IMG/VR virus record: IMGVR_UViG_2869970738_000004
DNA from: a virus
Taxonomy: Duplodnaviria > Heunggongvirae > Uroviricota > Caudoviricetes
Direction: 5' to 3' (one strand)
Length of the DNA stretch: 35,320 bases
Positions within the stretch are counted from its first letter, which is position 1. Every line of letters begins with the position of its first letter. The notes beneath the pieces are model-generated. The model saw only the letters and a program-made list of their open reading frames with translations. It had not been told where the DNA came from and ran no database searches. The translations under genes were made by a program, and so were the position numbers. Of this stretch, positions 1 to 31,399 are shown one piece after another.

Positions 1-141
1 TTACTGCTTACACTGTAAGAACGCCGCAAACTCCGCTCCCCAGAAGCTCATCCGTATTTCGCACAGCGAACCGTGCAGCATCCAGATGATGAGGATTGCC
101 GTCACGCAGAACGTGATGGCCGTAAGCGATTTTTGCGACAT
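1..141 (-). CDS. Hok/Gef-family type I toxin homologue (46 aa, below ORF-track size cutoff)
   Basis: Reverse-strand ORF from ATG (139-141) to TAA (1-3) translates to MSQKSLTAITFCVTAILIIWMLHGSLCEIRMSFWGAEFAAFLQCKQ: polar N-terminus, one TM helix, then the SLCE..(E)xAAF..C tail typical of Hok proteins; AAGGAG RBS about 8 nt upstream. Confidence 0.5.
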   Translation of the reverse strand: MSQKSLTAITFCVTAILIIWMLHGSLCEIRMSFWGAEFAAFLQCKQ

Positions 142-492
142 AGCGCTTGCTCCTTTTTCGGGGAGGCGCTAACCTATCACTTGCTTAGGGTAGACGGTTA
201 GGGCCTCGGTTAAACAAAAATGTTTTCCGGGGCCTTTCCACATCTGGCCTTCAGGTATTCCCTCCGACCATCAGCCGAAAGGCACCCGCGCGTAATCTAT
301 CGCTTTTTTGTTACTCCGGCAATTCTGCTCGTTAATTCTGAGGTAAGGGCAAACTCATCTGATTGTTTCCTCTGTGTGAAGTTGGCAGTTCATGCCACGG
401 GTAGACTGGCCCCCTGAATCTCCAGACAACCAGTATCACTTAAATAAGTGATAGTCTTAATACTAGTTTTTAGACTAGTCATTGGAGTACAG

Positions 493-858
493 ATGATTGA
501 TGTCTTAGGGCCGGAGAAACGCAGACGGCGTACCACACAGGAAAAGATCGCAATTGTTCAGCAGAGCTTTGAACCGGGGATGACGGTCTCCCTCGTTGCC
601 CGGCAACATGGTGTAGCAGCCAGCCAGTTATTTCTCTGGCGTAAGCAATACCAGGAAGGAAGTCTTACTGCTGTGGCCGCCGGAGAACAGGTTGTTCCTG
701 CCTCTGAACTTGCTGCCGCCATGAAGCAGATTAAAGAACTCCAGCGCCTGCTCGGCAAGAAAACGATGGAAAATGAACTCCTCAAAGAAGCCGTTGAATA
801 TGGACGGGCAAAAAAGTGGATAGCGCACGCGCCCTTATTGCCCGGGGATGGGGAGTAA
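493..858 (+). CDS. insC: IS2 transposase OrfA (InsC)
   Basis: Track ORF 448-858; recognised InsC sequence begins [26 protein letters not shown] at ATG 493. Confidence 0.9.
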
Positions 859-1721
859 GCTTAGTCAGCCGTTGTCTCCGGGTGTCGCGTGCGCAGTTGC
901 ACGTCATTCTCAGACGAACCGATGACTGGATGGATGGCCGCCGCAGTCGTCACACTGATGATACGGATGTGCTTCTCCGTATACACCATGTTATCGGAGA
1001 GCTGCCCACGTATGGTTATCGTCGGGTATGGGCGCTGCTTCGCAGACAGGCAGAACTTGATGGTATGCCTGCGATCAATGCCAAACGTGTTTACCGGATC
1101 ATGCGCCAGAATGCGCTGTTGCTTGAGCGAAAACCTGCTGTACCGCCATCGAAACGGGCACATACAGGCAGAGTGGCCGTGAAAGAAAGCAATCAGCGAT
1201 GGTGCTCTGACGGGTTCGAGTTCTGCTGTGATAACGGAGAGAGACTGCGTGTCACGTTCGCGCTGGACTGCTGTGATCGTGAGGCACTGCACTGGGCGGT
1301 GACTACCGGCGGCTTCAACAGTGAAACAGTACAGGACGTCATGCTGGGAGCGGTGGAACGCCGCTTCGGCAACGATCTTCCGTCGTCTCCAGTGGAGTGG
1401 CTGACGGATAATGGTTCATGCTACCGGGCTAATGAAACACGCCAGTTCGCCCGGATGTTGGGACTTGAACCGAAGAACACGGCGGTGCGGAGTCCGGAGA
1501 GTAACGGAATAGCAGAGAGCTTCGTGAAAACGATAAAGCGTGACTACATCAGTATCATGCCCAAACCAGACGGGTTAACGGCAGCAAAGAACCTTGCAGA
1601 GGCGTTCGAGCATTATAACGAATGGCATCCGCATAGTGCGCTGGGTTATCGCTCGCCACGGGAATATCTGCGGCAGCGGGCTTGTAATGGGTTAAGTGAT
1701 AACAGATGTCTGGAAATATAG
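816..1721 (+). CDS. insD: IS2 transposase OrfB (InsD); normally expressed as InsCD by -1 frameshifting
   Basis: 301-aa ORF with integrase-core transposase sequence (…[37 protein letters not shown]…); overlaps insC in -1 frame. Confidence 0.9.
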
Positions 1722-1732
1722 GGGCAAATCCA

Positions 1733-1928
1733 ACGGGATGCCCTCTGATGAGTGAATGGGGGAGGCGTGCTTTGAAGTGAATTTGTGGAAGGCTTCCAGT
1801 GTTGAGAAACATACGCCGCATTCTAGATTGTTACACTGATAATACTTTTGTCTCACGGTGTTTGAATCATTTTCCGGACGACTGGTGCGGATACGGGCAG
1901 ATGCGCCACAAAGCGGACAACGGAACAT
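1733..1928 (-). pseudogene. ogr: Ogr/Delta-family zinc-finger late-gene activator, interrupted by IS2 at about codon 66; remaining 3' codons lie at 332-396
   Basis: N-terminus MFRCPLCGASARIRTSR…YYQCNNLECGVCF matches the Ogr C-x2-C…C-x4-C zinc-finger pattern; the track ORF tail [12 protein letters not shown] is read from the IS2 right end; reading across the TSD restores an 86-aa frame ending …IPWHELPTSHRGNNQMSLPLPQN. Confidence 0.75.
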
Positions 1929-2063
1929 AGCGACCTCTCTTATTGTAGTGCTTGCACTATTCTAGGTTGTATTCTCTAAGATTTAAACATGACTTTCTCT
2001 ATATAATGATTTTTAGCATTAGTTAATAAACGAACGGCACTCTAAGGAGCGCCGTCAAAGATA

Positions 2064-5000
2064 TTATTCTGATGTCACTCTTTGCGAGTGAGCTATTTTT
2101 AAATCAGCGTTTCCTTCAAATACTACATTCAACTCATAGTTAAGAGTTAGCTTGAATTTATCTGAGTCACTTTTGATATTCTCTGAAGTGACATTTACTA
2201 ACTTATTATTATCATATTCTCTAATAATTAATTTAGTGAAGTAGTTATCCTTTACCACAAGAGAAAATGGTTGATTAACAAATGGTAAGAAGTAAACCTT
2301 ACGGGTACCGGATTCAGTAGTTATGTTCATAGAGCCATCATCATTTTTTCTCATTAGTTCTCTGAGGTTGGGATTATCGAAAAGCATACGATTATATTGC
2401 TGAAAGATCTCTTTACTCATCACAAGAACCAGTTTGCCAGCCAAGTCAGCAGATGATTTTATGTGATCAATCAACATATTGAAATCTTCTATTACGGTAT
2501 GTTGCGAACAGCCAGTGCTAAATAAATTTGAAAGTATTATTCTCTGGATGTCCTTGAGAATTAAGTCTGCTTGAATATCACCTTCATTGATATAAGGGAT
2601 GGATTCTATTCCTTCGGCATACGGTTCTTTATCTATCTTAATAGATATCTTATGTTTTGTGAAACAATCGCTAGCCTGCTTAAAATCAATAGATTTGAAA
2701 AGTGAAAGAGGGAGCGTTTTCTTGATGCGTTTACGAAGATGTTCTGATGTTTTACGTGCAGTGCTATCTAGTCGATGTACATCTATGGCAGCATCCTGAA
2801 GTCTCATATCAAGATCTTTCTTTAGCATGTTAATATGCTCTTGAAGCAACTTTCTTAAGTTTTCTTTTTTTGTTTGGAGATCGTCCAATGTTAAAGTCAG
2901 CTTGATTTTAGTATATTCGATGGAGTTACAAATTTTTGATAATACTCCAATGAGTCGTTGCTTCTCACGATATGTTATATAGTTGTTTTCTATTGCTTCT
3001 TTTATTTCTTTTGATACGCTATCGTTCTTGTTAGGAAAAATTAATAATAGCTGAACCCATGATTGTTCCATATCAATAAATCCACAGTCAAAAACATTAC
3101 TGTAAACTCTGCCCATCACCATGTCTGTTTTATCATAGTCACGTAAACGCCTTGCTAAACTATTCATCCACCCATTGTGTTCCATATTTTCAGACCATGT
3201 CCACAGGCAGATTCTAATTAATATCTTGATTAGTTGGCTTGCATTATCAATTTCTTCAGTGGGAGTTTCATATCCACCGGTTTGGTCAATAAGTTTACCC
3301 TCTAAAATAAGTTTAATGTAATGTGTCATTAGTTTGTCAGAAGTATTGATTCTTGATGTCAGATAAAGACATGTGCATATACGCATGTCAGTCAACGCAT
3401 TTATGATGGCAATATTGAACCACTCTCTGTCTGAATTGAAGTTTAGTTTTTTGGATATGAAAAAACCCGGGTTAAAAAGCTGGCCTTTGTAACTGTATTT
3501 TTCTACCGAATGGCTGTCAATATTCATTGAGTGCTGCCATCGGTTAATAAGATCGACGGCTGTATCAATAGTAGAAGGATCGCGAGTCTGTGTTGCATCA
3601 ATAATCATCGATGGAAGTTCTTGTAGTTGCGTTTTGCAAAATAATTCAAATAAATCTGAATTCTCTGTATTGCAGAAACGAAAGTTTATGCTTTCTTGAT
3701 ATTGCTCCCAAACAGTGGTATAGGTTCTTAATATACGATTATAACGTGAACGAAGCGAGGCATTTAAGAGTGATTGGTTGTTTCGGAACCATTCTGTTAA
3801 TATTGACCATTGTGAACGAGTAATTCCCATATAGATACAAAGTTCATTGCTGATAAGATGTTTTCTATTATTGATAATACGCACTCCGCTCCAAAGACAT
3901 AATTCAAAAAATCTTTCAGAAAGATTAATTTTATCCATGGAATTATTTGATATTTTATAAACTTCATCTGAAAACTCATATTGAAAACTCCGTTCAAATA
4001 ATTCTGTAGTGATCAGTAAGAAGTTATTGTTGGTATTATCATCTTGAAAAAAATACAAATCGCAGAGATTATTAAAGTTATTAATTAATGCAGAGATAGC
4101 ATTGTCAAAACTAATGAGATCAGAATCCCGCAGATACATATACGTATCTGCTGTTATAGCCTGCATTGTAAGACTTACGGAAAAATCTCCTCCTTTAATC
4201 GGAGCCCTATAAAAACATTGCTTAAGTATTTTTATTAATAAGCTGTCTGGTTTGATATTTTTAACGCTAAAAAGTATCTTACCCGTGGATTCTGTTTCTT
4301 TTGTACGATTATCACCAATGACAAATGACGCAAAATGATTCTTCTTTTTTAGTTGGTAATTAATAAGATTAAGAGTAAGTTGAAAAGGACGGTGATATAA
4401 ACTTAACTCATCTTCCTTAGAATAACTGCTAGCCACAGATATGTATTCTCCTTTGTAATCGGCTTGCTTGATTTCTAAATTTGAATAGTTATGTTTTTGA
4501 TAGATAGGGTATAACCTAAGCTTGGCTGAGATTTTGTTACAAATATGGGGCATTACTATTTCGAAGGCAATGTATCGCTTTATAATTATTTGCCGTTTTA
4601 CATCATCAAGAATTTCAAGACTCACGATAAAGAACCAAATAGAAAGAACTATGTTTATCAAAAGCCATAATATGCTGATTAGACAAGCTATACCATAAAG
4701 ATAACTTCCAAAGACAGTTTTAATTAGTACACTGAGAAGTATAAATCCTGATAAGAAAAGCCCGCTGAGTCCAGCAAGCATGAATCCTGAGTAACGCTGA
4801 TAAGCAGTTTGGGCTATTTTTCTATCTGCCTTTTTTTGGAATAAGATACTTACTAAACCTATAACAAGGGGGTATACAATACCAATAATTGTCAATTGGC
4901 CACTTAAAATGGTTGTTTGCCATTCGGTTAATGAATGCCTAAACGGGAAATAATGTAAAAGATTATTTTTTATAAATAATTCGTTTAAATATCCAACATA

Positions 5001-5183
5001 AAGTAGTACAAATGAAAAAGCTGATATGCAAAGTACTGATTTAACCGGTGAGGATGTTAATCTTATGATGTTTTTTTCAATAAAATTCCATTTTAAATTC
5101 GAATAAAATGGATTTTTAACCATTTTATTACGAACATAGTTCTTTGCTAAAATCTCTGTTGCACTTAAAAATTGTCCAATCAT
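2064..5183 (-). CDS. Hypothetical 1039-aa membrane-anchored protein, AT-rich accessory gene between D and ogr; candidate defence/abortive-infection factor
   Basis: Single uninterrupted ORF; nucleotide composition clearly more AT-rich than flanking phage genes; four hydrophobic helices at about residues 49-190 followed by about 850 aa of Asn/Lys/Ile-rich soluble sequence; no canonical Walker A (GxxxxGK[ST]) seen. Confidence 0.8.
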   Translation of the reverse strand: MIGQFLSATEILAKNYVRNKMVKNPFYSNLKWNFIEKNIIRLTSSPVKSVLCISAFSFVLLYVGYLNELFIKNNLLHYFPFRHSLTEWQTTILSGQLTIIGIVYPLVIGLVSILFQKKADRKIAQTAYQRYSGFMLAGLSGLFLSGFILLSVLIKTVFGSYLYGIACLISILWLLINIVLSIWFFIVSLEILDDVKRQIIIKRYIAFEIVMPHICNKISAKLRLYPIYQKHNYSNLEIKQADYKGEYISVASSYSKEDELSLYHRPFQLTLNLINYQLKKKNHFASFVIGDNRTKETESTGKILFSVKNIKPDSLLIKILKQCFYRAPIKGGDFSVSLTMQAITADTYMYLRDSDLISFDNAISALINNFNNLCDLYFFQDDNTNNNFLLITTELFERSFQYEFSDEVYKISNNSMDKINLSERFFELCLWSGVRIINNRKHLISNELCIYMGITRSQWSILTEWFRNNQSLLNASLRSRYNRILRTYTTVWEQYQESINFRFCNTENSDLFELFCKTQLQELPSMIIDATQTRDPSTIDTAVDLINRWQHSMNIDSHSVEKYSYKGQLFNPGFFISKKLNFNSDREWFNIAIINALTDMRICTCLYLTSRINTSDKLMTHYIKLILEGKLIDQTGGYETPTEEIDNASQLIKILIRICLWTWSENMEHNGWMNSLARRLRDYDKTDMVMGRVYSNVFDCGFIDMEQSWVQLLLIFPNKNDSVSKEIKEAIENNYITYREKQRLIGVLSKICNSIEYTKIKLTLTLDDLQTKKENLRKLLQEHINMLKKDLDMRLQDAAIDVHRLDSTARKTSEHLRKRIKKTLPLSLFKSIDFKQASDCFTKHKISIKIDKEPYAEGIESIPYINEGDIQADLILKDIQRIILSNLFSTGCSQHTVIEDFNMLIDHIKSSADLAGKLVLVMSKEIFQQYNRMLFDNPNLRELMRKNDDGSMNITTESGTRKVYFLPFVNQPFSLVVKDNYFTKLIIREYDNNKLVNVTSENIKSDSDKFKLTLNYELNVVFEGNADLKIAHSQRVTSE

Positions 5184-5431
5184 GAATTACTCTTCTATAA
5201 AGTGTGGGTCTACTAACTAAACTGGAACTTTTACTATTGAGTCATATTCCCTTGGACGGGATGGACTGTGAAGATTATACTTGACTTCCTCTGTCATGTG
5301 GGAAAAACATCCGTATTATTGTTAGCATCTGGTTGATGCCCCAACCTCTGACATCTAGTGGGCTGATACATTATCTTTTGTTCTTACTGTCAGTGTAGAA
5401 GCACATCTCAAAAATAATATTTTTAAGAGAT

Positions 5432-6541
5432 TTATTCTGTTTCTGCTATCCATTCCGGGATTTTTGCTTCAAGTTCAAGCTGCGTGGTAAAGCCGCTGTT
5501 ATCAATGGTGTGCTCGGCTTTTGCAATAATCCAGTCCTGATAATCAATCTCGCTTTTAAAGCCTGTCACTGTGCCATGCATTTCGGGATAGAGTTCTGCA
5601 CGACCACGCGCCAGTGTGATGGAAAATGATGCGGCTCCGCGTTGTAGCTGCTGCCACTTTGCCGCCGCTGCGCGTCTTGCTGCCTGCTCGTTCTGATAAG
5701 TCTTGCGTAACACAAACACGTTGCCTTCCGCACCTTCCATATAGTCGCCTTCCCGACTGCTGCTTTTCTCCTTTTTGGGTTTTGGCGGTTTGCGGCGTTT
5801 CACGCTGACTTTTTTCTTTTTCCCGTAATTAAGATCAAGCCAGTAGGCGCGTACCCCCGTATACGCCTCGCGGTCAGCAATGCGGAACTGATGGCGATCG
5901 CCGCTGCTGCGTGTAATGGCGAACGAGGGCAACGGCTGCCCCTGTGCGTTCACGCCACCACCTGGCATGATGAATAACAGATTGCCGCTTTTTACCGTGG
6001 CGATTGCTCCCAGCATTTCCGCCATGCGCGTAAGAAAGGACATGTCGCTTTCTTCGGTCTGGTCGGCGTGGTCGATTTCGATATCCATCAGCATTTCGCT
6101 GATTTGCGGTTTCAGACCGTATCGATGAGCGATGGCGGATACCACACGCTCAACGGTCACATCATGCCAGGACACCTCACGTTTAACGTTAAATTCATCC
6201 CGAAAATCTGCGCTTCTGGCTGAAACAGTCAGCCTGTCCGGCGGTCCTTCGTGAGCGATTTCATCAACAATGTAAGTGCCTTTTTCTGTCAGCGGTTCCC
6301 CTTTCCAGCCAATGAGAACCGTCAGACGCGCGCCCCGTGGCGGTAGCTGCAACTGACCATCCGCATCATCCAGCGTGATGGTGAGCTGGTCCGCCTCAAA
6401 TCCCCGGTTGTCGGTCAGTTACAGGCTCATCAGGCGCTCCGCCACGCCTGACAGCGTTTTACCCTCCGAGAGAATATCAAAATCCGGCATTTTCACGGGG
6501 GCCGTGCCCTGACTGAGCAATTGCATGGTGGTGTCGGTCAT
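5432..6541 (-). pseudogene. D: P2 gpD-like tail protein with in-frame TAA at codon 41
   Basis: ATG at 6541 with GGAGGGAG RBS; frame reads MTDTTMQLLSQGTAPVKMPDFDILSEGKTLSGVAERLMSL, then TAA (6419-6421), then continues in the same frame into the 306-aa track ORF. Confidence 0.8.
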
Positions 6542-6698
6542 CTACTCCCTCCCTGTGCGGCATGGTCGCATGTGCGTGCGGAGGGGGTTACTGCTTTTTG
6601 TTGTCGCCGTGGCGGGAGAACGGCGCAGGGGTGAGATTACGCGCGTGGTGGGTGATGATTGTTGCTGAATCATTTAACGGATACAAGGGGCTGAAGCT

Positions 6699-7883
6699 AT
6701 GAGTGAAACTCGTTTTCATGGTGCCCGTGTTACGGAGAATACCGACCTGGTAACAGCGATTAACGATGTTGATTCCAGCGTTATCGGTATCGTGGCAACG
6801 GCGGATGATGCGGACGCGAAGCTGTTCCCGCTGAACAAGCCCACACTGCTGACCCGCGTCAATGACGTGCTGGGAAAATGCGGGACAACGGGGACGCTTT
6901 ATCGTGCGCTTAAGGCCATCGCAGACCAGGTGAGCACAAAGGTGATCGTCGTTCGCGTGGCTGAACACAAAGAAGAAGACGGAAAGACGCAGGATCAACT
7001 GGTTATCGGTGGTTCTGAGGATGACGGCAGCTATACGGGGATGTATGCGCTGCTTGTTGCAGAGCAGGATGAAAGCATCGGATACCGTCCGCGTATTCTG
7101 GCCGCGCCGGAGCTGGACACGGAGGCGGTAACAAAATCCCTGTGCGTGATTGCAGATAAACTGCGCGCGTTTGTGTATGCCTCATGTCATGGCTGTAACA
7201 CGATGGCCGAGGCAATTACCTACCGCCAGAAATTCAACGAACGTGAGGTGATGCTCTTATGGCCGGACTTCATCGCCTACAACCCGAAAAATGGCAAAAA
7301 CGAAACGTTCCCCGCGCCTGCCTATGCGTGCGGCCTTCGTGCGTACATTGACCATGAACAGGGATGGCACAAATCGCTGTCCAACGTTCCGGTTAAAAAT
7401 GTGCTGGGGATGTCGAGGCATGTGTTCTGGTCGTTGCAGGCCGAAGACAGCGATGCCAACAGCCTCAACAACAAAGAAATCACGACCATTATTCGTCGCA
7501 ACGGGGTCCGCTTCTGGGGTAACCGCACACCGGAAACGAACGCCTACATCTTTGAGGTGTATACCCGAACCGCACAGGTGCTGGCTGATTCAATTGCGGA
7601 AGCGCAGTTTGAAACCATCGACAGTCCACTGACGCCTGCGAATGTGAAGGATGTTATCAGTGCCATCAGGGCAAAACTGGATTCACTGGTGACTGCCGGG
7701 AAACTGATTGGCGCGGAGTGCTGGTATGACGTGGTGGATAACAGCACCACGGATTTACGTCAGGGACGTGTGCGTATTCGCTACAAATATACGCCCGTTC
7801 CGCCACTGGAAGACATGGAGCTTTACCAGACGTTTACTGATGAATACTTTGAACCCGCATTTGCGGTGCTGGGAGGTGCCTGA
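6699..7883 (+). CDS. FI: Tail sheath protein (P2 gpFI-like)
   Basis: 394-aa ORF with sheath-family conservation (…KLRAF.Y…WPDF…QGWHK.LSNV…IRR.G.RFWGNRT…YTPVPPLE…). Confidence 0.9.
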   Translation: MSETRFHGARVTENTDLVTAINDVDSSVIGIVATADDADAKLFPLNKPTLLTRVNDVLGKCGTTGTLYRALKAIADQVSTKVIVVRVAEHKEEDGKTQDQLVIGGSEDDGSYTGMYALLVAEQDESIGYRPRILAAPELDTEAVTKSLCVIADKLRAFVYASCHGCNTMAEAITYRQKFNEREVMLLWPDFIAYNPKNGKNETFPAPAYACGLRAYIDHEQGWHKSLSNVPVKNVLGMSRHVFWSLQAEDSDANSLNNKEITTIIRRNGVRFWGNRTPETNAYIFEVYTRTAQVLADSIAEAQFETIDSPLTPANVKDVISAIRAKLDSLVTAGKLIGAECWYDVVDNSTTDLRQGRVRIRYKYTPVPPLEDMELYQTFTDEYFEPAFAVLGGA

Positions 7884-8359
7884 TGGCTGTGCCAAAACAT
7901 CTTCGCTTTTTTACGCTGTTTGTGGATGGTGAAAACGAAGTGGGTAATGTGACGTCCGTCACTCTGCCTAAGCTGACGCGCAAAACCGACAGCTACCGGG
8001 GTGGTGGCATGATGGGTGCGGTAAGTATTGATCTCGGTCTGGACGACTCCGCGCTTGATGCGAGCTTTGTCATGGGGGCGCAGTTCGTGAGCTGTTCCTT
8101 AAGTATGGCGGCACGATTGACGGCACGCTGCTGCGTTTTGCGGGTGAATACTACACCGATGCAGAAAGCGACCTGTATGAAGTCGAAATGCGCGGACGTG
8201 TGACGGAAATTGATATGGGGGAAGCCAAACAGGGCGAAGCCACATCACACACTTACGCCATTAAAACACCTACTACAAGCTGAGTGTTAACGATCGCCCG
8301 TTGTGGGAGATTGACCTGCTGAACTTCATTTACCGGAAGGACGGGGTAATGACTCCAAC

Positions 8360-8737
8360 TTATTGATAGTGTTTTATGTTCAGATAATGCCCGATGACTT
8401 TGTCATGCAGCTCCACCGATTTTGAGAACGACAGCGACTTCCGTCCCAGCCGTGCCAGGTGCTGCCTCAGATTCAGGTTATGCCGCTCAATTCGCTGCGT
8501 ATATCGCTTGCTGATTACGTGCAGCTTTCCCTTCAGGCGGGATTCATACAGTGGCCAGCCATCCGTCATCCATATCACCACGTCAAAGGGTGACAGCAAG
8601 CTCATAAGACGCCCCAGCGTCGCCATAGTGCGTTCACCGAATACGTGCGCAACAACCGTCTTCCGGAGCCTGTCATACGCGTAAAACAGCCAGCGCTGGC
8701 GCGATTTAGCCCCGACGTATCCCCACTGTTCGTCCAT
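8360..8737 (-). CDS. insB: IS1 InsB reading frame (expressed as InsAB' by frameshifting)
   Basis: 125-aa [51 protein letters not shown]…. Confidence 0.85.
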
Positions 8738-8781
8738 TTCCGCGCAGACGATGACGTCACTGCCCGGCTGTATGCGCGAGG

Positions 8782-9057
8782 TTACCGACTGCGGCCTGAG
8801 TTTTTTAAGTGACGTAAAATCGTGTTGAGGCTAACGCCCATAATGCGTGCAGTTGCCCGGCATCCAACGCCATTCATGGCCATATCAATAATTTTCTGGT
8901 GCGTACCGGGTTGAGAAGCGGTGTAAGTGAACTGCAGTTGCCATGTTTTACGGCAGTGAGAGCAGAGATAGCGCTGATGTCCGGCAGTGCTTTTGCCGTT
9001 ACGCACCACCCCGTCAGTAGCTGAACAGGAGGGACAGCTGATAGAAACAGAAGCCAC
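8782..9057 (-). CDS. insA: IS1 InsA
   Basis: 91-aa [46 protein letters not shown]…. Confidence 0.9.
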
Positions 9058-9225
9058 TGGAGCACCTCAAAAACACCATCATACACTAAATCAGTAAGTT
9101 GGCAGCATCACCGAAGGACGGCAAGGACATTGTGCCCGATCGCATCCGTTCCGCGCTTGGGCTTGGCTGATAAGTAATATGCTGGCGGCGCAGTGCGTCG
9201 CCTCTGACTGAAAAGGAGACAACAG

Positions 9226-9600
9226 ATGAAAGACATCGATACTGAAACCCGGAATAACACCGTGGCGGATAATGTGACGGCAGTTGAGGATATGGCTGTC
9301 GAACGTGGCGTAAAACTGACCCGACCAATTGAGCGTGGTGGCGAAAAAATCACGTATGTGGAGATCACCGGGGCTATTGAGCAGGCTGGATCCCTGCGTG
9401 GTCTGTCGCTGTCTGATGTGCTGAATCTGAAAGCGGATACCATGTTCACGCTGTTGCCTCGCGTGACCTCGCCACGACTGGATGAAGTGATGATTAAAAA
9501 AATGTCGTCACGCGATTTTATTCAGTTGTGCGCTGTGGCTGTAAATTTTATGAGCGAGCCAGACTCTGGCGCGAAGAGCGTGCAGGAGACGGCAGCGTAA
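9226..9600 (+). CDS. E: Tail assembly chaperone (P2 gpE-like); a -1 frame extension (E', open to 9764) probably gives an E+E' product
   Basis: 124-aa ORF directly after FII; an overlapping -1 frame stays open from about 9500 to 9764; an A7 run at about 9497-9503 is a candidate slip site. Confidence 0.75.
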   Translation: MKDIDTETRNNTVADNVTAVEDMAVERGVKLTRPIERGGEKITYVEITGAIEQAGSLRGLSLSDVLNLKADTMFTLLPRVTSPRLDEVMIKKMSSRDFIQLCAVAVNFMSEPDSGAKSVQETAA

Positions 9601-9714
9601 TCACCCTGGTGTGCTTTGAGCACATCGAAGATCTGGTGGCGGATATTGCCGCCATTTTTAACTGGTCGCCCGCCGAAATCTTCATGATGACGCCCTGCGA
9701 AGTGGTTAGCTGGC

Positions 9715-12558
9715 GTGAGCGAGCGGCACTTCGTAGCGGGAATGCAGACAATGAAGACTCTTGATATCCGGGTCGCTTTCAGCGCCGTTGACAGGCTGAC
9801 CCGGCCTGCCGAAAACGCCCGCCGCCTGATGGGGCAGTTTGGTGACTCCATCCAGCGAACGCAGGGGGCGATCAAAAATCTCGAGCGTCAGGCGCGATCA
9901 TTTGAGCGCGCCCGTGACGCTGTCAGTAAAGCGGATGCGGGCATCGTGAAAGCACGACGCCAGCTTAACGCCCTTAATCAGTTACAACGCACGGGTACAG
10001 TGCTCAGCGAAAAACAACAAAAGCTGATGCAGCAGTTAAGCACCCGGCTTGAACGCCTGAATGAATCGCGCACACGGGAAATTCAGAAAATGCGGGAGCT
10101 TGGCGGAGAGCTGAAACGCCACGGCATTTCCCTGACAGGCAGCGATAACACCATCCAGCAGGCCATCAGACGCACCGAACAGTACAACAACCAGCTTGAA
10201 CGCGAACGGCAGGCGCTTGCGCGTGTAACACGGGCGCGTGAGCGGTATTCGCGCGCGCAGGAAACAGCGGGAAAACTGAAAACAGGTGGTGCGCTGGCAA
10301 TTGGTGCGGCAGCGGCGGGCGGCTATGCTGCCGGGCGTTTTTTGCAGCCTGCGATCGGGTTCGGCAAAGAGATGTTCCGCGTTCAGGCACTGACGCGAAT
10401 CGACCAGAACAGCCCGCAGTTTAAGGCGCTGCGTGAGCAGGCGTTAAAACTTGGCTCTGAAACGCAGTTCACCGCAGGCGATGCCGCCAGTGGACAGGCA
10501 TTTCTTGCAATGGCTGGCTTTACACCACAGGCCATTCAGGCTGCGCTCCCTGGCGTACTGAGCATGGCAACGGCTGGCGGTATGGACCTCGGTGAGACGG
10601 CGGATATTGGCTCAAATATTCTGACGCAGTTCGGTCTTTCTGCTGACCAGATGGACCGGGTCGGCGACACACTCACCGCAGCGTTTACCCGTACCAACAC
10701 TGACCTTCGCGCACTGGGTGAAACCATGAAATATGCAGGTCCGGTGGCGGGTAAGCTGGGAATATCTCTGGAGCAGGCCGCAGCGATGGCGGGCGTGCTG
10801 GCGAATATGGGTATCAGGGGGAGTGATGCTGGTACGGCAATGCGTGCCAGCCTGGCTCGTCTGGCATCACCGCCAAAGGCGGCAGCAGAGGCGCTGAAAG
10901 AGCTTGGCGTGTCTGTCTCGGATGCCGGGGGCAAAATGCGCCCGATGGAGGATGTGCTGGCTGACCTTTATAAAGCTACCCGCAAATACGGGGAAGTTGA
11001 CCGGGTATCGTTCTTTAAGGACATTGCCGGAGAAGAGGCTTTCACATCATTTATGGCCCTCGTTGATGCGGCAGGTGACGGCTCCTTACCCAAACTGAGA
11101 AAAGAACTTGAAGGCGCGCGCGGTGAGGCTGAACGCACGGCAAAGGTTATGGCCAACAACCTTGACGGCGATCTGAAATCACTCAGCAGTGCATGGGAAG
11201 GGTTGCGCATCCGCATTGCAGATCTGATTGACGGTCCGCTGCGTTCTGTCACGCAGTGGCTCACGCGTGTGGTATCAAAGGTGACGGCGCTGGCGCAGGC
11301 CCATCCCGCACTGACGCGCCAGCTACTGATTGCAGGCGGTGCATTGCTGGCAATGACTGCAACGGTTGGCTCGTTGTCGCTGGCTATTGGTGTGCTTGCT
11401 GGCCCGCTGGCAAAACTGCGTCTTGGTTTTTCCCTCCTGACCGGATCAATGAATGCTGTCAGGGTTCTGCCAGCACTATGGGGAATGGTGACGGGTTCCG
11501 TTTCTTTACTGGGAGGCGCTATCGGGGCGTTGTTCAGTCCGGTTGGTCTTATCGTGGCTGCGCTTGCCGGAGCTGCCGTTCTTATCTGGAAATACTGGGA
11601 TCCCATCAGGGCATTTTTTGCCGGGGTGTTCAGCGGGATTATGGAAAGGCTGACCCCGTTGCGCGAAACATTTGAACGGTTTGGTCCTGTTTTTGACGCA
11701 ATCGGGAGTGGGATCAGCCAGGTGTTTAACTGGTTTAAATCGCTGCTGTCACCGATGGAGTCCAGCAAGGAAACTCTGGATAAATGTACCAGTGCTGGCG
11801 AGATATTCGGTAACGTTCTTGGCGGTGCGTTACAACTTGTTCTGACACCTGCAAAAATGTTGCTGGATACGCTGGCGTGGATACTTGAAAAGCTTGGTGT
11901 GCTTCCGGATGAAGCGGAAAGGGCGCGCAAGAAAATCGAAGACGCACAGCGTGCGGCCATTCTTCAGGACAAGGTTGCCTTGCTTCAGGGGGACCTGGCG
12001 AAAATCAATCCGCCGAAGCCTGTGGAAAATGGCAATGGCACCGGAGGTGATAACCCCAAAGACAATAAACCGCTCACAGACAGCAATACCGGTACGCTGC
12101 GCAGACTCAGCAAAATTGCTGATAACACAGGTAAGCTGGTTGAGGAGACGAAAAAACGCATTGGCCCCGGCGATATTGTCTTTAAAAACCTGCCCCGAGC
12201 ACTTGCTGTTCGTGGGGAGTGGCAGGAGCGGAAGATTGCGCAGGTCAGTAAGCCTGCCCCCGCAATTAATATCACACCCGTGGTTCCGGCTCCGCTGCCT
12301 CCGGCGCTGGTCCCTGTTGTTGCGGCCAGCTCCCGCCCGGTGGCGGAGGCTATACGATCTCCAGTGGCATCAGTTCCTGTAACTTCCCGTAACCGGGAGC
12401 CTGTTGCCTCCGGATTTGGTGGTGAAATTCATGTTCATCTGCATAACGTTGTTACGCAGAATCCCCGCGAACTGGCGAAACTGGTCGGTGAAATGGTCAG
12501 GGCAGAAATGGAACGGCGCGCCCGTGCCGGGCGTGGCTGTTTTTACGATAAAGATTGA
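9715..12558 (+). CDS. T: Tail tape-measure protein (P2 gpT-like); true start may be an internal Met near 9742-9751
   Basis: 947-aa ORF with coiled-coil N-terminus, Gly/Ala-rich hydrophobic middle and Pro/Ala-rich tail, in the canonical position after E/E'. Confidence 0.9.
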   Translation: MSERHFVAGMQTMKTLDIRVAFSAVDRLTRPAENARRLMGQFGDSIQRTQGAIKNLERQARSFERARDAVSKADAGIVKARRQLNALNQLQRTGTVLSEKQQKLMQQLSTRLERLNESRTREIQKMRELGGELKRHGISLTGSDNTIQQAIRRTEQYNNQLERERQALARVTRARERYSRAQETAGKLKTGGALAIGAAAAGGYAAGRFLQPAIGFGKEMFRVQALTRIDQNSPQFKALREQALKLGSETQFTAGDAASGQAFLAMAGFTPQAIQAALPGVLSMATAGGMDLGETADIGSNILTQFGLSADQMDRVGDTLTAAFTRTNTDLRALGETMKYAGPVAGKLGISLEQAAAMAGVLANMGIRGSDAGTAMRASLARLASPPKAAAEALKELGVSVSDAGGKMRPMEDVLADLYKATRKYGEVDRVSFFKDIAGEEAFTSFMALVDAAGDGSLPKLRKELEGARGEAERTAKVMANNLDGDLKSLSSAWEGLRIRIADLIDGPLRSVTQWLTRVVSKVTALAQAHPALTRQLLIAGGALLAMTATVGSLSLAIGVLAGPLAKLRLGFSLLTGSMNAVRVLPALWGMVTGSVSLLGGAIGALFSPVGLIVAALAGAAVLIWKYWDPIRAFFAGVFSGIMERLTPLRETFERFGPVFDAIGSGISQVFNWFKSLLSPMESSKETLDKCTSAGEIFGNVLGGALQLVLTPAKMLLDTLAWILEKLGVLPDEAERARKKIEDAQRAAILQDKVALLQGDLAKINPPKPVENGNGTGGDNPKDNKPLTDSNTGTLRRLSKIADNTGKLVEETKKRIGPGDIVFKNLPRALAVRGEWQERKIAQVSKPAPAINITPVVPAPLPPALVPVVAASSRPVAEAIRSPVASVPVTSRNREPVASGFGGEIHVHLHNVVTQNPRELAKLVGEMVRAEMERRARAGRGCFYDKD

Positions 12559-13068: not shown

Positions 13069-13098
13069 AAAACCGCTAATGGTCAGATTAGCGGTTTT
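13069..13098. terminator. Perfect 12-bp-stem hairpin between convergent U and invertase genes; likely bidirectional terminator
   Basis: AAAACCGCTAAT-GGTCAG-ATTAGCGGTTTT; T-run follows on the + strand, A-run precedes. Confidence 0.6.
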
Positions 13099-13732
13099 CA
13101 TTTTCCTGAGTCTGCCCGGTTGTTTCTTCAGTCTGTATATCGCCTACAGGGTGATAACGATAAATCGTCGATGTGCCAATGCCGTAAATTATTGCCAGTT
13201 GTTTTCTGTCGTGCCCGTTTTTGATTAGCCTTGCTATTTGCTCATGCTGTTCTTTTGTCAGCTTCGGTCGACGTCCGCCTGTGCGCCCCCTTGCGCGCGC
13301 TGCCGCCAGCCCGGCCAGTGTACGTTCAACAATTAATTCACGTTCCATTTCAGCCAGGGCACCCATCACGTGGAAGAAAAAACGCCCCATTGGAGAAGAT
13401 GTGTCTATGCTGTCGGTCAGACTGCGAAAATTAATCCCTCGCTCCCGTAGTTCCCCGACGAGAGAAATCAGATGTTTCATGCTTCGCCCGAGGCGATCCA
13501 GTTTCCAGACAACCAGCGTGTCACCTTTTTGAAGGCGCTTTAAAGCGCGTTTTAATCCCGGTCGGTCTGTCTTTGTCCCGCTTAATTTATCTTCAAATAT
13601 TTGTTCACATCCTGCACAAACAAGAGCGTTTCGTTGCAGGTCTGTATTGTTGATACCCTTACATAGCCAATCAGCACACTGAATCTCCCGTCCAAAAGCG
13701 CAAATCATGCCATGCAGGCCAGAAACGGCCAT
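13088..13732 (-). pseudogene. Gin/Pin/Cin/Hin-family serine DNA invertase, N-terminal frameshift separating the catalytic-serine motif from the body
   Basis: Body matches invertases (…NTDLQRNALVCAGCEQIFEDKLSGT.TDRPGLKRAL…HTH); the motif LIGYVRVST is encoded in a different frame from NTDLQ, consistent with a 10-bp deletion between short ATA repeats. Confidence 0.8.
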
Positions 13733-13756
13733 TATTTAAAACCTCGGTTTACAGGA
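13731..13756. other. gix/cix-like invertase crossover site (distal)
   Basis: TTATTTAAAACCTCGGTTTACAGGAA abutting the invertase start; shares the core ACCTCGGTTTAC with an inverted copy at 17965-17990. Confidence 0.65.
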
Positions 13757-13781
13757 AACGGTAAACAGGGCTGGTAACGCC

Positions 13782-14618
13782 GTGCAAAAAAATGGCGATA
13801 CCTTGTCCGGTGGGCTTACTTTTGAAAATGACTCAATCCTTGCCTGGATTCGAAATACTGACTGGGCGAAGATTGGATTTAAAAATGATGCCGATGGTGA
13901 CACTGATTCATACATGTGGTTTGAAACAGGCGACAACGGCAATGAATATTTCAAATGGAGAAGCCGCCAGAGCACCACAACAAAAGACCTGATGACGCTG
14001 AAATGGGATGCACTAAATATTCTTGTTAATGCTGTCATTAATGGCAGTCTTGGAGTTGGTTCGACGAATGCGTTAGGTGGTAGCTCTATTGTTCTTGGTG
14101 ATAATGACACCGGATTTAAACAGAATGGAGACGGTATTCTGGATGTTTATGCTAATAGTCAGCGTGTATTCCGCTTTCAGAATGGAGTGGCTATTGCTTT
14201 TAAAAATATTCAGGCCGGGGATGGTAAAAAATTCACGCTATCCAGCTCCAACAACTTCACAAAGAATGCAACGTTTAATTTATGGGGTGCTTCAACCCGT
14301 CCAGTAGTTGCAGAGTTAGGCGATGAGGCAGGATGGCATTTCTATAGCCAGCGAAATACAGATAACTCGGTAATATTTTCTGTTAACGGTCAGATACAGC
14401 CCAGCAACTGGGGGAATTTTGATTCACGCTATGTAAAAGATGTTCGCCTGGGTACGCGTGTTGTTCAATTGATGGCGCGTGGTGGTCGTTATGAAAAAGC
14501 CGGACACGCAATTACCGGATTAAGAATCATTGGTGAAGTAGATGGCGATGATGAAGCCATCTTCAGACCAATACAAAAATACATCAATGGCACATGGTAT
14601 AACGTCGCACAGGTGTAA
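13782..14618 (+). CDS. Alternative tail-fibre C-terminal (receptor-binding) cassette in the silent orientation; coding continuity starts at the crossover site near 13757
   Basis: ORF ends …[11 protein letters not shown], paralleling the reconstructed end of H (…INGTWYNAGSI); frame is continuous back to the gix core. Confidence 0.7.
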
Positions 14619-14621
14619 ATT

Positions 14622-15150
14622 ATGCAGCATATTAAAAAATATTAAGTCCGGAAATCCAAAAACAAAAGAACAATATCAGCTAACAAAGAATTTTGATGTT
14701 ATCTGGTTATGGTCCGAAGACGGTAAAAACTGGTATGAGGAAGTAAATAACTTTCAGGACGACACCATAAAGATTGTATACGACGAAAATAATATTATTG
14801 TTGCCATAACCAAAGATGCCTCAACGCTTAATCCCGAAGGCTTTAGTGTCGTTGAGATTCCAGATATAACAGCCAATCGTCGCGCCGATGATTCAGGGAA
14901 GTGGATGTTTAAGGACGGAACTGTGGTTAAGCGGATTTATACAGCAGACGAACAGCAACAACAGGCCGAATCACAAAAGGTCGCGTTGCTTTCTGAAGCT
15001 GAAAGCGTTATTCAGCCACTGGAACGCGCTGTCAGGCTGAATATGGCGATGGATGAGGAACGCACACGACTGGAGTCATGGGAACGCTACAGCGTTCTGG
15101 TCAGCCGTGTGGATACAGCAAATCCCGAATGGCCACAAAAGCCTGAGTAA
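14622..15150 (+). pseudogene. Tail-fibre assembly protein (alternative copy) with +1 frameshift in an A6 run at codons 5-7
   Basis: ATG at 14622 reads MQHIKKY then stop; the homologous body ([17 protein letters not shown]…) is in the next frame; the paralogue on the other strand reads [22 protein letters not shown]. Confidence 0.6.
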
Positions 15151-15155
15151 AAATT

Positions 15156-15175
15156 AAGGCCCAATATCGGGCCTT
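15156..15175. terminator. Hairpin between the two convergent tail-fibre assembly genes
   Basis: AAGGCCC-AATATC-GGGCCTT. Confidence 0.5.
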
Positions 15176-15178
15176 CTC

Positions 15179-15712
15179 TCATTCTGGTTGTTCGGGAAAC
15201 GTTACTGGCAGGCTGGAGGTGTCTGTAGATTCGACTTTCTGCGCATAGAGCATCCACTCGGTTAATTTTTGTTTATTCTCGTCGGAAATGATGCCCAGCC
15301 GTAGCTGTGAGTCCCATAGCTGGGTTTTATCCCTGACAAGTTGCAACAGGCTTTGCTTTTCATTTTCCGCTTGTTGCCTCTGCTCTTCCTCGGTATAAGT
15401 TCGCTTTATCACTACGCCATCTTTGAACAACCATTTCCCCGAAATATCAGCCCGGCGATTTGCTGTAATATCAGGTAATTCAACGACGCTTGCGCCTTCC
15501 GGATTAATTGCTGAAACATCCTTTTCAATACAAATAATAACGCCGTTATGGTCATAGACCATTTTCAAAGTGTCTGGCTGGAAATTCTTTTGCTCCTCAT
15601 ACCAGTTTTTTCCATCATCTGAATAAAGCCATTTGATGTTAAATTGCTTTGTTAGCTGGTATTGCTCTTTTGTTTTAGGGTTGCCAGCAGTAATGTTTTT
15701 TAAGTGCATCAT
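15179..15712 (-). CDS. Tail-fibre assembly protein (P2 gpG / Mu U-like), expressed orientation
   Basis: 177-aa [23 protein letters not shown]…; start 2 nt after the reconstructed H stop. Confidence 0.85.
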   Translation of the reverse strand: MMHLKNITAGNPKTKEQYQLTKQFNIKWLYSDDGKNWYEEQKNFQPDTLKMVYDHNGVIICIEKDVSAINPEGASVVELPDITANRRADISGKWLFKDGVVIKRTYTEEEQRQQAENEKQSLLQLVRDKTQLWDSQLRLGIISDENKQKLTEWMLYAQKVESTDTSSLPVTFPEQPE

Positions 15713-15840
15713 CGTTAAATACTCCCCGCGTTATACCACGTCCCATTAATGCAATACTGAATTGGCCTTGCCTGTGTTGTATCAATTAATTCATCACGGT
15801 TTCCGTTAACTGAACCCGTAACGACGGTAATGACTCCAAC

Positions 15841-16218
15841 TTATTGATAGTGTTTTATGTTCAGATAATGCCCGATGACTTTGTCATGCAGCTCCACCGA
15901 TTTTGAGAACGACAGCGACTTCCGTCCCAGCCGTGCCAGGTGCTGCCTCAGATTCAGGTTATGCCGCTCAATTCGCTGCGTATATCGCTTGCTGATTACG
16001 TGCAGCTTTCCCTTCAGGCGGGATTCATACAGTGGCCAGCCATCCGTCATCCATATCACCACGTCAAAGGGTGACAGCAAGCTCATAAGACGCCCCAGCG
16101 TCGCCATAGTGCGTTCACCGAATACGTGCGCCACAACCGTCTTCCGGAGCCTGTCATACGCGTAAAACAGCCAGCGCTGGCGCGATTTAGCCCCGACGTA
16201 TCCCCACTGTTCGTCCAT
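15841..16218 (-). CDS. insB: IS1 InsB reading frame
   Basis: Protein identical to copy 1. Confidence 0.85.
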
Positions 16219-16262
16219 TTCCGCGCAGACGATGACGTCACTGCCCGGCTGTATGCGCGAGG

Positions 16263-16538
16263 TTACCGACTGCGGCCTGAGTTTTTTAAGTGACGTAAAA
16301 TCGTGTTGAGGCTAACGCCCATAATGCGTGCAGTTGCCCGGCATCCAACGCCATTCATGGCCATATCAATAATTTTCTGGTGCGTACCGGGTTGAGAAGC
16401 GGTGTAAGTGAACTGCAGTTGCCATGTTTTACGGCAGTGAGAGCAGAGATAGCGCTGATGTCCGGCAGTGCTTTTGCCGTTACGCACCACCCCGTCAGTA
16501 GCTGAACAGGAGGGACAGCTGATAGAAACAGAAGCCAC
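16263..16538 (-). CDS. insA: IS1 InsA
   Basis: Protein identical to copy 1. Confidence 0.9.
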
Positions 16539-16793
16539 TGGAGCACCTCAAAAACACCATCATACACTAAATCAGTAAGTTGGCAGCATCACCCGTAACG
16601 ACATAACCTGACCTGTCAGACCAGCCGGGACCATTCCATGTCTGAACAGATGACAGACCGCCAAGGCGAATACCTGTAATAAACCTTGAGTTACATTCTG
16701 CCCGCGTATATGCACCAACATCTCCCGCTGAAGGTTTTCGTGTCGTGGTATAGAAATCTGACCAACCTAATTCAACCCGGTAATGACTCCAAC

Positions 16794-17171
16794 TTATTGA
16801 TAGTGTTTTATGTTCAGATAATGCCCGATGACTTTGTCATGCAGCTCCACCGATTTTGAGAACGACAGCGACTTCCGTCCCAGCCGTGCCAGGTGCTGCC
16901 TCAGATTCAGGTTATGCCGCTCAATTCGCTGCGTATATCGCTTGCTGATTACGTGCAGCTTTCCCTTCAGGCGGGATTCATACAGTGGCCAGCCATCCGT
17001 CATCCATATCACCACGTCAAAGGGTGACAGCAAGCTCATAAGACGCCCCTGCGTCGCCATAGTGCGTTCACCGAATACGTGCGCAACAACCGTCTTCCGG
17101 AGCCTGTCATACGCGTAAAACAGCCAGCGCTGGCGCGATTTAGCCCCGACGTATCCCCACTGTTCGTCCAT
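16794..17171 (-). CDS. insB: IS1 InsB reading frame
   Basis: 125-aa ORF. Confidence 0.85.
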
Positions 17172-17215
17172 TTCCGCGCAGACGATGACGTCACTGCCCG
17201 GCTGTATGCGCGAGG

Positions 17216-17491
17216 TTACCGACTGCGGCCTGAGTTTTTTAAGTGACGTAAAATCGTGTTGAGGCTAACGCCCATAATGCGTGCAGTTGCCCGGCATCCA
17301 ACGCCATTCATGGCCATATCAATAATTTTCTGGTGCGTACCGGGTTGAGAAGCGGTGTAAGTGAACTGCAGTTGCCATGTTTTACGGCAGTGAGAGCAGA
17401 GATAGCGCTGATGTCCGGCAGTGCTTTTGCCGTTACGCACCACCCCGTCAGTAGCTGAACAGGAGGGACAGCTGATAGAAACAGAAGCCAC
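17216..17491 (-). CDS. insA: IS1 InsA
   Basis: 91-aa ORF. Confidence 0.9.
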
Positions 17492-17964
17492 TGGAGCACC
17501 TCAAAAACACCATCATACACTAAATCAGTAAGTTGGCAGCATCACCATTCAACCCCATAACCATCATGAGCCGACCTGTAGGAAATGCCACCATTTTTAT
17601 AATTCACACGGAATTGTACGGCAGGACAGCTACCAGCATTTATATTAAAGTGAAGAATTAATGCAGATGCACCACCAATCAGGGCGTTATATGCACTACT
17701 ATCCCAATTCCATCCAATGGATGTATCACCATTAACAGTATTACCTGTTTGTCGGAGTGCAAATGCATTGACATTTTTGGCACTAATTGAAATATCGCTA
17801 GAACCATCAAAACCAACTCCAGCAATTTTTCGTGCTGTTTTCAGCTTTGTTGCAGTAGCGGCATTGCCGGACAGTTCCCCAGAAAGGCCACCGCTGAATG
17901 TTTGTCGATTGGTCCAGGTATTCGCTGTACTGAGTAACGGTATTTTCTCCCCGCTTGTGCCGAG

Positions 17965-25927: not shown

Positions 25928-26203
25928 GTGGCTTCTGTTTCTATCAGCTGTCCCTCCTGTTCAGCTACTGACGGGGTGGTGCGTAACGGCAAAAGCACTG
26001 CCGGACATCAGCGCTATCTCTGCTCTCATTGCCGTAAAACATGGCAACTACAGTTCACTTACACCGCCTCTCAGCCCGGTACGCACCAGAAAATCATTGA
26101 TATGGCCATGAATGGCGTCGGATGTCGTGCCAGTGCACGCATTATGGGCGTTGGCCTCAACACGATTTTACGTCACTTAAAAAACTCAGGCCGCAGTCGG
26201 TAA
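25928..26203 (+). CDS. insA: IS1 InsA
   Basis: 91-aa ORF. Confidence 0.9.
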
Positions 26204-26247
26204 CCTCGCGCATACAGCCGGGCAGTGACGTCATCGTCTGCGCGGAA

Positions 26248-26625
26248 ATGGACGAACAGTGGGGATACGTCGGGGCTAAATCGCGCCAGCGCTGGCTGTT
26301 TTACGCGTATGACAGGCTCCGGAAGACGGTTGTTGCGCACGTATTCGGTGAACGCACTATGGCGACGCAGGGGCGTCTTATGAGCTTGCTGTCACCCTTT
26401 GACGTGGTGATATGGATGACGGATGGCTGGCCACTGTATGAATCCCGCCTGAAGGGAAAGCTGCACGTAATCAGCAAGCGATATACGCAGCGAATTGAGC
26501 GGCATAACCTGAATCTGAGGCAGCACCTGGCACGGCTGGGACGGAAGTCGCTGTCGTTCTCAAAATCGGTGGAGCTGCATGACAAAGTCATCGGGCATTA
26601 TCTGAACATAAAACACTATCAATAA
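26248..26625 (+). CDS. insB: IS1 InsB reading frame
   Basis: MDEQWGY… portion of track ORF 26122-26625. Confidence 0.85.
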
Positions 26626-26805
26626 GTTGGAGTCATTACCCGCCGTGCGTAAGGTGAAAACACCGGGCGGCTTTATCACTTACGAAACGGACCGAGCGAG
26701 GGGGATCAGCCACGGCGACCTTGCGTGGGTAACCATGCTTGCTGTCATTAACGAACCGATTGGCGGCGAAGGAGAAAACGAGCGTTTCACGGTTATGGAG
26801 TTCTG

Positions 26806-29929: not shown

Positions 29930-29940
29930 TGAAGTGGTCA

Positions 29941-31395
<1,455 letters not shown>

Positions 31396-31399
<4 letters not shown>

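Follow-up and report, generated by a model that had tools for sequence, protein, structure and literature searches.

The Ogr protein of phage P2 and the B protein of phage 186, both of 72 amino acids, are C4 zinc-finger activators of late transcription. Both contain the Pfam domain Ogr_Delta (PF04606), built from a four-cysteine ribbon and a short helix. The canonical four-cysteine motif is CX2CX22CX4C, and the consensus of the P2 late promoters is TGT-N12-ACA (PMC3931495). [quoted passage not shown] In both phages, the activator gene is located at the end of the late operon near the attachment site, in the order D - ogr/B - att. A cryptic P2-family element is also represented by the ogrK remnant of Escherichia coli K-12. 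It is a defective prophage that kept an ogr-type gene and lost its structural genes. Names of the type 'prophage P2 remnant' were seen among the database matches.

The locus described here resembled P2 and 186 in the PF04606 domain with its ribbon and helix, in the position of the activator gene and in late promoters with a dyad-like upstream site. The identity of its ogr product in the alignment was 35% to P2 Ogr and 31% to 186 B. Unlike these proteins, it comprises 86 amino acids, with a longer linker, a distinct tail motif and a cysteine spacing of X24. Weak similarity extends to the tail ends of P2 Ogr and 186 B, with G, Q and hydrophobic residues arranged as G-x-x-Q-hydrophobic-x-hydrophobic or G-Q-x-x-hydrophobic-W-hydrophobic. 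Further differences from P2 and 186 were a cargo gene between ogr and D and the interruption of ogr by the insertion sequence IS2. Compared with the K-12 remnant, which it resembles as a defective element with an ogr-type gene, the prophage is still about 35 kb long, its tail genes are identifiable and an IS cuts its ogr short.

The whole stretch of DNA that was analysed, referred to as the window, comprises 35,320 nucleotides and represents one P2-family prophage, from int and the repressor gene to ogr and hok/sok. With tblastn, P2 matches were obtained for D, FI, FII, E, T, U, H, G, I, J, W, V, S, R, O, P, Q, C and int. The genes were near-identical to those of the SK1144 prophage. The closest phage homologues of the Ogr protein, with 89.5-96.5% identity, were those of Escherichia phage 500465-2, Citrobacter phage Shae_phiSM and Xuanwuvirus P884B11. 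Judged by these matches, the prophage is P88-like and belongs to Xuanwuvirus within the P2 family (Peduoviridae). The genes delimiting it were as follows:

1-141, minus strand: hok coding sequence, with a product 100% identical to an annotated Hok/Gef protein
128-287, minus strand: sok-family RNA match (Rfam RF01794, 46 bits, E 1.4e-8, under the gathering score of 59)
33986-34291: repressor gene
34343-35317: int, integrase gene

The hok/sok-type toxin-antitoxin locus (1-287, minus strand) lies downstream of ogr at the prophage end. In the relatives, the element is inserted between ihfA and btuC, and the order is ihfA - hok - ogr - cargo - D - tail genes, with FI-U on the other strand. The intact P88-like relatives share the order hok - ogr - cargo slot - D with the window. 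They differ from it in an uninterrupted ogr and in complete late and replication modules. The orientation of FI-U had been a candidate for an inversion relative to P2; this was rejected, as the opposite strand is the normal layout in the intact relatives. The ogr gene is found at the late-tail-gene end, beside the attachment-site end, which is the position expected of an Ogr/Delta gene. The cargo gene (2064-5183) showed no match in Pfam, in PADLOC or among PDB folds.

On the minus strand, ogr starts with an ATG at 1928-1926, reaches its native stop codon at 334-332 and is split by the insertion. The following parts were distinguished:

1733-1928, minus strand: 5' part of ogr, 65 native codons and one nucleotide, encoding the zinc ribbon and the helix 44-52
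1692-1928, minus strand: fusion ORF as it stands, 78 amino acids, 65 of them native and 13 from the right end of IS2
332-401, minus strand: detached 3' remnant of ogr, from the final two bases of codon 66 through codons 67-86 to the stop codon
1959-1987, minus strand: candidate promoter of the sigma-70 type (TTTAAA-17-TAGAAT) upstream of the ATG of ogr, recognised by consensus match only

The native sequence before IS2 amounts to 196 nt, corresponding to 65 whole codons and one nucleotide. The junction lies exactly between P65 and W66, where the tail motif begins. The detached remnant encodes the conserved tail WHELPTSHRGNNQMSLPLPQN, which represents the 21 lost residues. In its place, 13 non-native residues were gained, 12 of them wholly IS-encoded and one from a hybrid codon. 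The earlier note had described a replaced C-terminus, with 22 residues lost, 12 gained and about 66 codons kept. The replacement itself was confirmed; the counts are corrected to 21, 13 and 65. The promoter candidate is unaffected by IS2 and identical to that of the empty-site relative.

The note had also proposed an in-silico excision of IS2. Removal of the element together with one copy of the target repeat yielded an 86-codon ORF ending at 332, and an intact 86-amino-acid allele was restored base for base. The reconstructed stretch from hok over ogr to the promoter, 728 nt in length, was 100% identical to E. coli VG38-53E1 (0 differences). The reconstructed protein is WP_000488109.1 (100% identity), carried by E. 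coli VG38-53E1 and M21816, and shares 96.5% identity with the intact Xuanwuvirus-type homologues of phiSM and 500465-2. Because excision yields an exact natural allele, the observation is not a chance pattern. An IS misplaced inside a repeat-rich region, by assembly or annotation, would be an artefact of the kind that IS-rich Shigella assemblies are generally prone to, and beyond this general difficulty nothing pointed to it. Against it stand the precise ends, the perfect 5-bp duplication and the excision to exactly a known allele, as well as the same junction product in many independently assembled chromosomes. The artefact reading is thus refuted, with a negligible probability remaining.

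The inserted element was characterised by its ends, reading frames and duplicated target:

402-1732, plus strand: complete IS2 (IS3 family), 1331 bp, identical over its full length to annotated copies
493-858, plus strand: IS2 orfA, 121 amino acids, Pfam PF01527 HTH_Tnp_1 (E 1.8e-19)
816-1721, plus strand: IS2 orfB, 301 amino acids, Pfam PF00665 rve (E 1.1e-18), PF13683 rve_3 and PF13276 HTH_21
397-401: left copy of the target-site duplication ACGGG, 5 bp, perfect
1733-1737: right copy of the target-site duplication ACGGG, 5 bp, perfect

Its left end reads TAGACTGG and its right end GCAAATCCA; the longer end reads are TAGACTGGCCCCC at the 5' side and GGGGCAAATCCA at the 3' side. Each end carries an imperfect terminal inverted repeat of about 41-42 bp. 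The published ends of IS2 are 5'-TAG... on the left and ...AATCCA-3' on the right, and the end sequences and repeat lengths found here match the published description (PMC3299598). Over its whole length, the element was 100% identical to E. coli copies labelled 'IS3-like element IS2 family transposase', and it was present in 4854 of the 5426 complete E. coli genomes. The orfA and orfB frames overlap at 816-858. At 810-816, within the overlap region, six consecutive A and a G form the sequence that we take to be the frameshift site of IS2. Near-identity, two overlapping ORFs with HTH and DDE/rve domains, terminal inverted repeats and the 5-bp duplication all place the element in IS2. In these respects it is ordinary, since other IS2 insertion mutations show the same 1331 bp, repeats of about 41-42 bp, orfA/orfB and a 5-bp duplication. 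What sets the case apart from them is its target, together with nearby hits in related prophages. The claim of an IS2 with a perfect ACGGG duplication in an Ogr-family gene was therefore confirmed by the ends, the identity, the repeats and the PF04606 match. The element lies about 115 bp upstream of the sok-family RNA match.

The part of Ogr retained in the fusion comprises the entire Pfam domain. PF04606 covered residues 3-49 and scored 52.3 bits for the native protein and 52.7 bits for the fusion, with a cut-off of 26.3. All four zinc-ligand cysteines (C4, C7, C32 and C37) were retained, and the zinc-finger region is intact, as the note had stated. Their spacing is CX2CX24CX4C, X24 compared with the canonical X22, and the two-residue insertion is common to the whole close subfamily. 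In the AlphaFold model, calculated from a 16-sequence alignment, residues 1 to about 50-52, with the zinc ribbon and the helix 44-52, showed pLDDT values of 74-84. Past about residue 52, values fell to 58, 59, 57 and 49 in successive blocks, and the lost tail belongs to this low-confidence part. The 65 retained residues thus include every residue that is modelled confidently, and the claimed loss of the late activator is not supported in that form.

Comparison with the described activators pointed in the same direction. Residues 1-63 of P2 Ogr align to the retained part of the ogr product. Gebhardt et al. (1993) are said to have truncated the carboxy terminus of P2 Ogr with no change in activity, and 186 B residues 1-53 reportedly keep metal and DNA binding (Pountney et al. 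1997). These reports would amount to the evidence for a dispensable C-terminus that the note had named as refuting its reading. Residue 42 is reportedly involved in the contact with the alpha subunit. In genetic mapping, this contact falls in the Ogr core (PMC11434276). The inference that the core suffices is weakened by the low identity of P2 Ogr and 186 B to this protein, at only 31-35%.

The deleted tail showed a different picture. Homologues retain a motif IP[WYR]..[LF]P.SH[RQY]G..Q[LIM].[LM] even where identity has fallen to about 35-60%, the form in this protein being IPW..LP.SHRG..Q..L. The linker preceding the motif varies freely among the homologues. Conservation of the motif next to a freely varying linker speaks for purifying selection on the tail and thus for some loss of function upon its removal. 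The alignment with Ogr/Delta proteins that had been suggested for judging the activity of the fusion therefore gave a mixed result: the core aligns within the retained part, but the deleted motif is conserved across the subfamily.

From sequence and model, the fusion probably keeps zinc and DNA binding, and the chances are roughly even that it activates late promoters at least partly. Any property of the Ogr homologue that depends on the tail is probably gone. Either the foreign tail of 13 residues or antisense transcription leaving IS2 could make the protein or its mRNA less stable. Selective conservation of the retained ogr part gave no signal, with 0 differences in 728 nt and just 6 in the adjacent 3.8 kb. 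The divergence concentrates at 6.4-8.3 kb and looks like a recombination mosaic.

Candidate sites for an activator were found in both divergent late-promoter regions:

6599-6621, plus strand: TGTTGT-N12-AGAAC, candidate binding site for the activator in the region of the divergent D/FI late promoters (D/FI intergenic region 6542-6698)
24195-24217, plus strand: TGTTGT-N12-AGAAC, candidate binding site for the activator in the region of the divergent O/P late promoters (O/P region 24126-24278)

The pattern, a lineage-specific variant of the P2 consensus, was defined post hoc from the very D/FI and O/P sites that it describes. The D/FI candidate resembles the P2 late-promoter consensus (PMC3931495). 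Exact matches to TGT-N12-ACA numbered 12 in the window against 9.2 expected, showing no enrichment, and none was located at the expected promoters. Both candidate sites are still present and are presumed targets of the Ogr homologue.

The lesions of the prophage were inventoried against SK1144 and M21816, two relatives that appear to be intact. Genes Y, X, L, M, N and A were missing, and O was without its C-terminal 117 residues. The genes lost include those for the major capsid, the small terminase, head completion, X, the holin and replication (A). Replication gene A and its neighbours are gone, and IS3-family fragments and a 265-bp IS2 fragment are found instead at 29938-32752. ParM is truncated in the window. 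In the tube gene FII there are two 1-nt deletions as well as an IS1, in the large terminase gene P a frameshift and an IS1, and in the portal gene Q a frameshift. Two IS1 copies are present in the H region, giving four IS1 in the prophage overall. Gene D has a nonsense codon at position 41, which is confined to the Shigella copies when compared with the relatives. A 266-amino-acid annotation of D in the relatives was considered as a short D and rejected, being a matter of start-site choice; their D reads through 369 amino acids. The repressor and the cox-like protein were 100% identical to those of SK1144, and the integrase was full-length at 97.8% identity.

The deletions, frameshifts, IS1 copies and D nonsense codon bear out the claimed decay of the structural genes. 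The set of essential genes of a viable phage was incomplete. With capsid, terminase, holin and replication genes lost, no virions can be expected whatever the state of ogr. The prophage is independently dead, and the activity of the fusion is thus irrelevant to phage production.

A causal chain had also been claimed, in which the loss of ogr silenced the late operons and selection on the structural genes was then relaxed. In this scenario IS2::ogr came first, and the silent late operons decayed as its consequence. The age of the lesions was assessed in nine Shigella loci, namely those retrieved via the fusion protein. IS2::ogr was present in 9/9 loci, placing it among the oldest lesions, and the insertion strips a conserved C-terminal motif; both observations would fit an early, causal IS2. 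Two IS1 insertions, one in FII and one in the cargo gene, were each limited to a subset of the loci and are therefore younger. However, the D nonsense codon was equally ancestral (9/9), and the two FII deletions occurred in all six loci that keep this segment, the other three having deleted it. As IS2::ogr, the D stop and the FII deletions are all ancestral in the sampled loci, nothing places IS2 first. The intact folded domain in Pfam and AlphaFold, and the truncations of P2 Ogr and 186 B that are reportedly tolerated, also argue against an abolished activator. In a repressed prophage, late genes are silent anyway and under no selection. The expansion of IS with pseudogene formation and prophage decay is a genome-wide trait of Shigella. 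With other lesions just as ancestral and gene losses that alone kill the phage, the causal chain was not upheld, and an IS2 that came first and caused the decay is unlikely.

Taken as a whole, the data are best explained by an ordinary IS2 insertion in an already wrecked P88-like Shigella prophage, and we regard this explanation as likely. A complete IS2 inserted in codon 66 of the 86-codon late-activator gene of the ogr family, duplicating ACGGG. The setting is a P88-like prophage between ihfA and btuC in a Shigella chromosome. The core (residues 1-52) and the promoter region stayed unchanged, the last 21 residues being swapped for 13 IS-derived ones. The resulting fusion would probably bind zinc and DNA, with the contribution of the tail motif lost. 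IS2 would then represent one of many neutral lesions in an IS-rich genome rather than a demonstrated cause of decay.

Related prophages showed further IS2 insertions near ogr. Altogether, three independent insertions in one orientation were found in a segment of about 0.6 kb. In E. coli STEC384/STEC379, IS2 is inserted after codon 68 with the duplication GTTCA, 9 bp from the Shigella site, and in E. coli ETEC4068/ETEC4075 it precedes the ogr ATG by about 144 bp. This suggests a regional preference or tolerance for IS2 at ogr. The three hits in the same orientation, two of them 9 bp apart, could reflect a structural hotspot, specific for one orientation, in the segment formed by the ogr 3' end and the region upstream of hok, and local DNA curvature has been related to the choice of targets by IS2 (PMC3299598). 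They could also be positively selected ogr-modifying insertions, which would, for example, disarm late and lysis gene expression of the prophage. Only about 4 of the approximately 1550 E. coli genomes with the region carry such an insertion, however, and insertions persist preferentially in dispensable prophage DNA. Hotspot and positive selection are, taken jointly, improbable. Slightly less probable again is the combined proposal that the ogr 3' end is a recurrent IS2 target, that the insertions detach a previously undescribed family-wide motif and that the fusion, instead of being a pseudogene, has been kept as a still-active activator with altered regulation. In this proposal the motif, written as [LF]P-x-SH-[RQY]-G-x-x-Q-hydrophobic-x-hydrophobic, might serve Ogr-type activators in regulation or in the binding of a partner.

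The exact IS2/ogr junction was absent from the 5426 complete E. coli genomes, which indicated a Shigella origin of the window. The exact 78-amino-acid fusion protein was detected in 171 collection blocks, of which 48 had contigs >1 Mb. In NCBI, this product is titled 'MULTISPECIES: ogr/Delta-like zinc finger family protein [Shigella]' and is linked to 169 contigs. The IS2::ogr allele is thus inherited, not private to one strain, and common to many Shigella genomes. It has already been in public Shigella genomes for years, annotated as an ordinary protein. The 78-amino-acid RefSeq protein represents this fusion with IS2, and a label as a disrupted gene would suit it better. The case itself matters little, being a clean and fully reconstructable IS truncation in a prophage that is decaying within an IS-rich Shigella genome. 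The natural intact and truncated alleles, differing in a conserved and uncharacterised tail motif, provide a ready pair for probing the Ogr tail. Among the records with the exact 78-amino-acid product were CP000036.1, presumably S. boydii Sb227, and CP026814.1, which was 99.95% identical to positions 1-11928 of the window.

Three independent IS2 insertions were found inside or adjacent to the late-activator gene ogr of related prophages, all in one orientation:

Window, from 402: IS2 in ogr, Shigella
L014 (E. coli STEC384 locus), 3072-4402: IS2 in or near ogr
L015 (E. coli ETEC4068 locus), from about 3415: IS2 in or near ogr

Two of the three sites were only 9 bp apart, with the duplications ACGGG and GTTCA. 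The ogr region may be a regional hotspot for IS2. Alignments of Ogr homologues revealed a C-terminal motif in this protein:

332-400: C-terminal motif of the Ogr-family protein, residues 64-84

The motif, IP[WYR]..[LF]P.SH[RQY]G..Q[LIM].[LM], was conserved in a sub-clade of the Ogr family and preceded by a variable linker. To our knowledge, no function has been published for it. In the NCBI multispecies entry for Shigella, the 78-aa IS2 fusion was treated like any regular gene product, under the name 'ogr/Delta-like zinc finger family protein', and not as the product of a disrupted gene. Numerous further frameshifted or fused variants of ogr were on record, each as a separate protein.

Two sites of the pattern TGTTGT-N12-AGAAC, which was defined after the fact, were located in divergent late-promoter regions:

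6599-6621: TGTTGT-N12-AGAAC, between D and FI
24195-24217: TGTTGT-N12-AGAAC, between O and P

The pattern was identical at both positions, and the distance to the start codons was about equal to that of the P2 activator sites. Both are candidate binding sites for the Ogr homologue of this prophage lineage.

The following lesions were located in the late genes themselves:

6419-6421, minus strand: nonsense codon at position 41 of D
7883-8344: FII with two 1-nt deletions
about 23633-23643: deletion junction, endolysin gene fused directly to scaffold gene O at codon 161

The deletion between endolysin gene and O had removed the genes for holin, X, L, M and N. The nonsense codon in D was common to the nine Shigella loci retrieved via the fusion protein; none of the three E. 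coli relatives examined had it. Both 1-nt deletions in FII occurred in the six Shigella loci that keep this segment, and in neither of the two E. coli relatives analysed for FII.

Further insertion sequences were distributed over the window. IS1 was present with four copies of 98.3-99.9% mutual identity, and there was a cluster of IS3-family fragments:

8345-9112: IS1 in the tail-tube gene FII
15826-16593: IS1 in the tail-fibre H region
16779-17546: IS1 in the tail-fibre H region
25873-26640: IS1 in the large-terminase gene P, inverted
29938-32752: cluster of IS3-family transposase fragments (ORFs with rve and HTH_Tnp_1)
32488-32752: IS2 fragment of 265 bp, identical to the element's right end

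The IS1 pair in the H region was in direct orientation, separated by 185 bp. Together, these IS3-family and IS2 fragments had replaced replication gene A with its neighbours; they also truncated a DUF4754 gene and ParM. The 265-bp IS2 fragment pointed the same way as the IS2 copy within ogr, and the pair could therefore mediate deletion of the entire prophage interior.

A serine invertase gene adjoined tail-fibre cassettes in opposite orientations (13088-15712):

13088-13732, minus strand: serine invertase gene (Resolvase and HTH_7 domains)

The plus-strand cassette comprised the H C-terminus and a G gene, which were 95% and 92% identical to H and G of P2, respectively. The minus-strand cassette held a second G-like gene. 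The region 13088-15712 looks like an invertible host-range segment.

Between ogr and D, a long cargo gene was intact:

2064-5183, minus strand: cargo ORF, 1039 aa

Its GC content was 33%, compared to about 54% in the flanks. Searches against Pfam and PADLOC gave no match, and the Foldseek search for PDB folds returned nothing significant (designed helical repeats ranked best, E-value 1.8e-3). AlphaFold gave a model with a mean pLDDT of 81. It comprised an N-terminal helical region of approximately 220 residues, possibly embedded in the membrane, a beta-rich C-terminal domain and, between the two, a large helical part. The protein family consisted of hypothetical proteins of 1040-1069 aa across Enterobacterales, including plasmids; the RefSeq label 'MFS transporter' looks spurious. 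Related prophages carried genes for a GmrSD nuclease or HxsD/HxsB in this slot instead, which makes the ORF a cargo gene with a candidate anti-phage role.

Directly downstream of ogr, the prophage ended with a toxin-antitoxin locus:

1-287, minus strand: hok/sok-type toxin-antitoxin locus

The Rfam match to sok reached 46 bits, below the gathering score of 59, and IS2 was located approximately 115 bp upstream of the matched RNA. The hok/sok-type locus was present in every relative examined.
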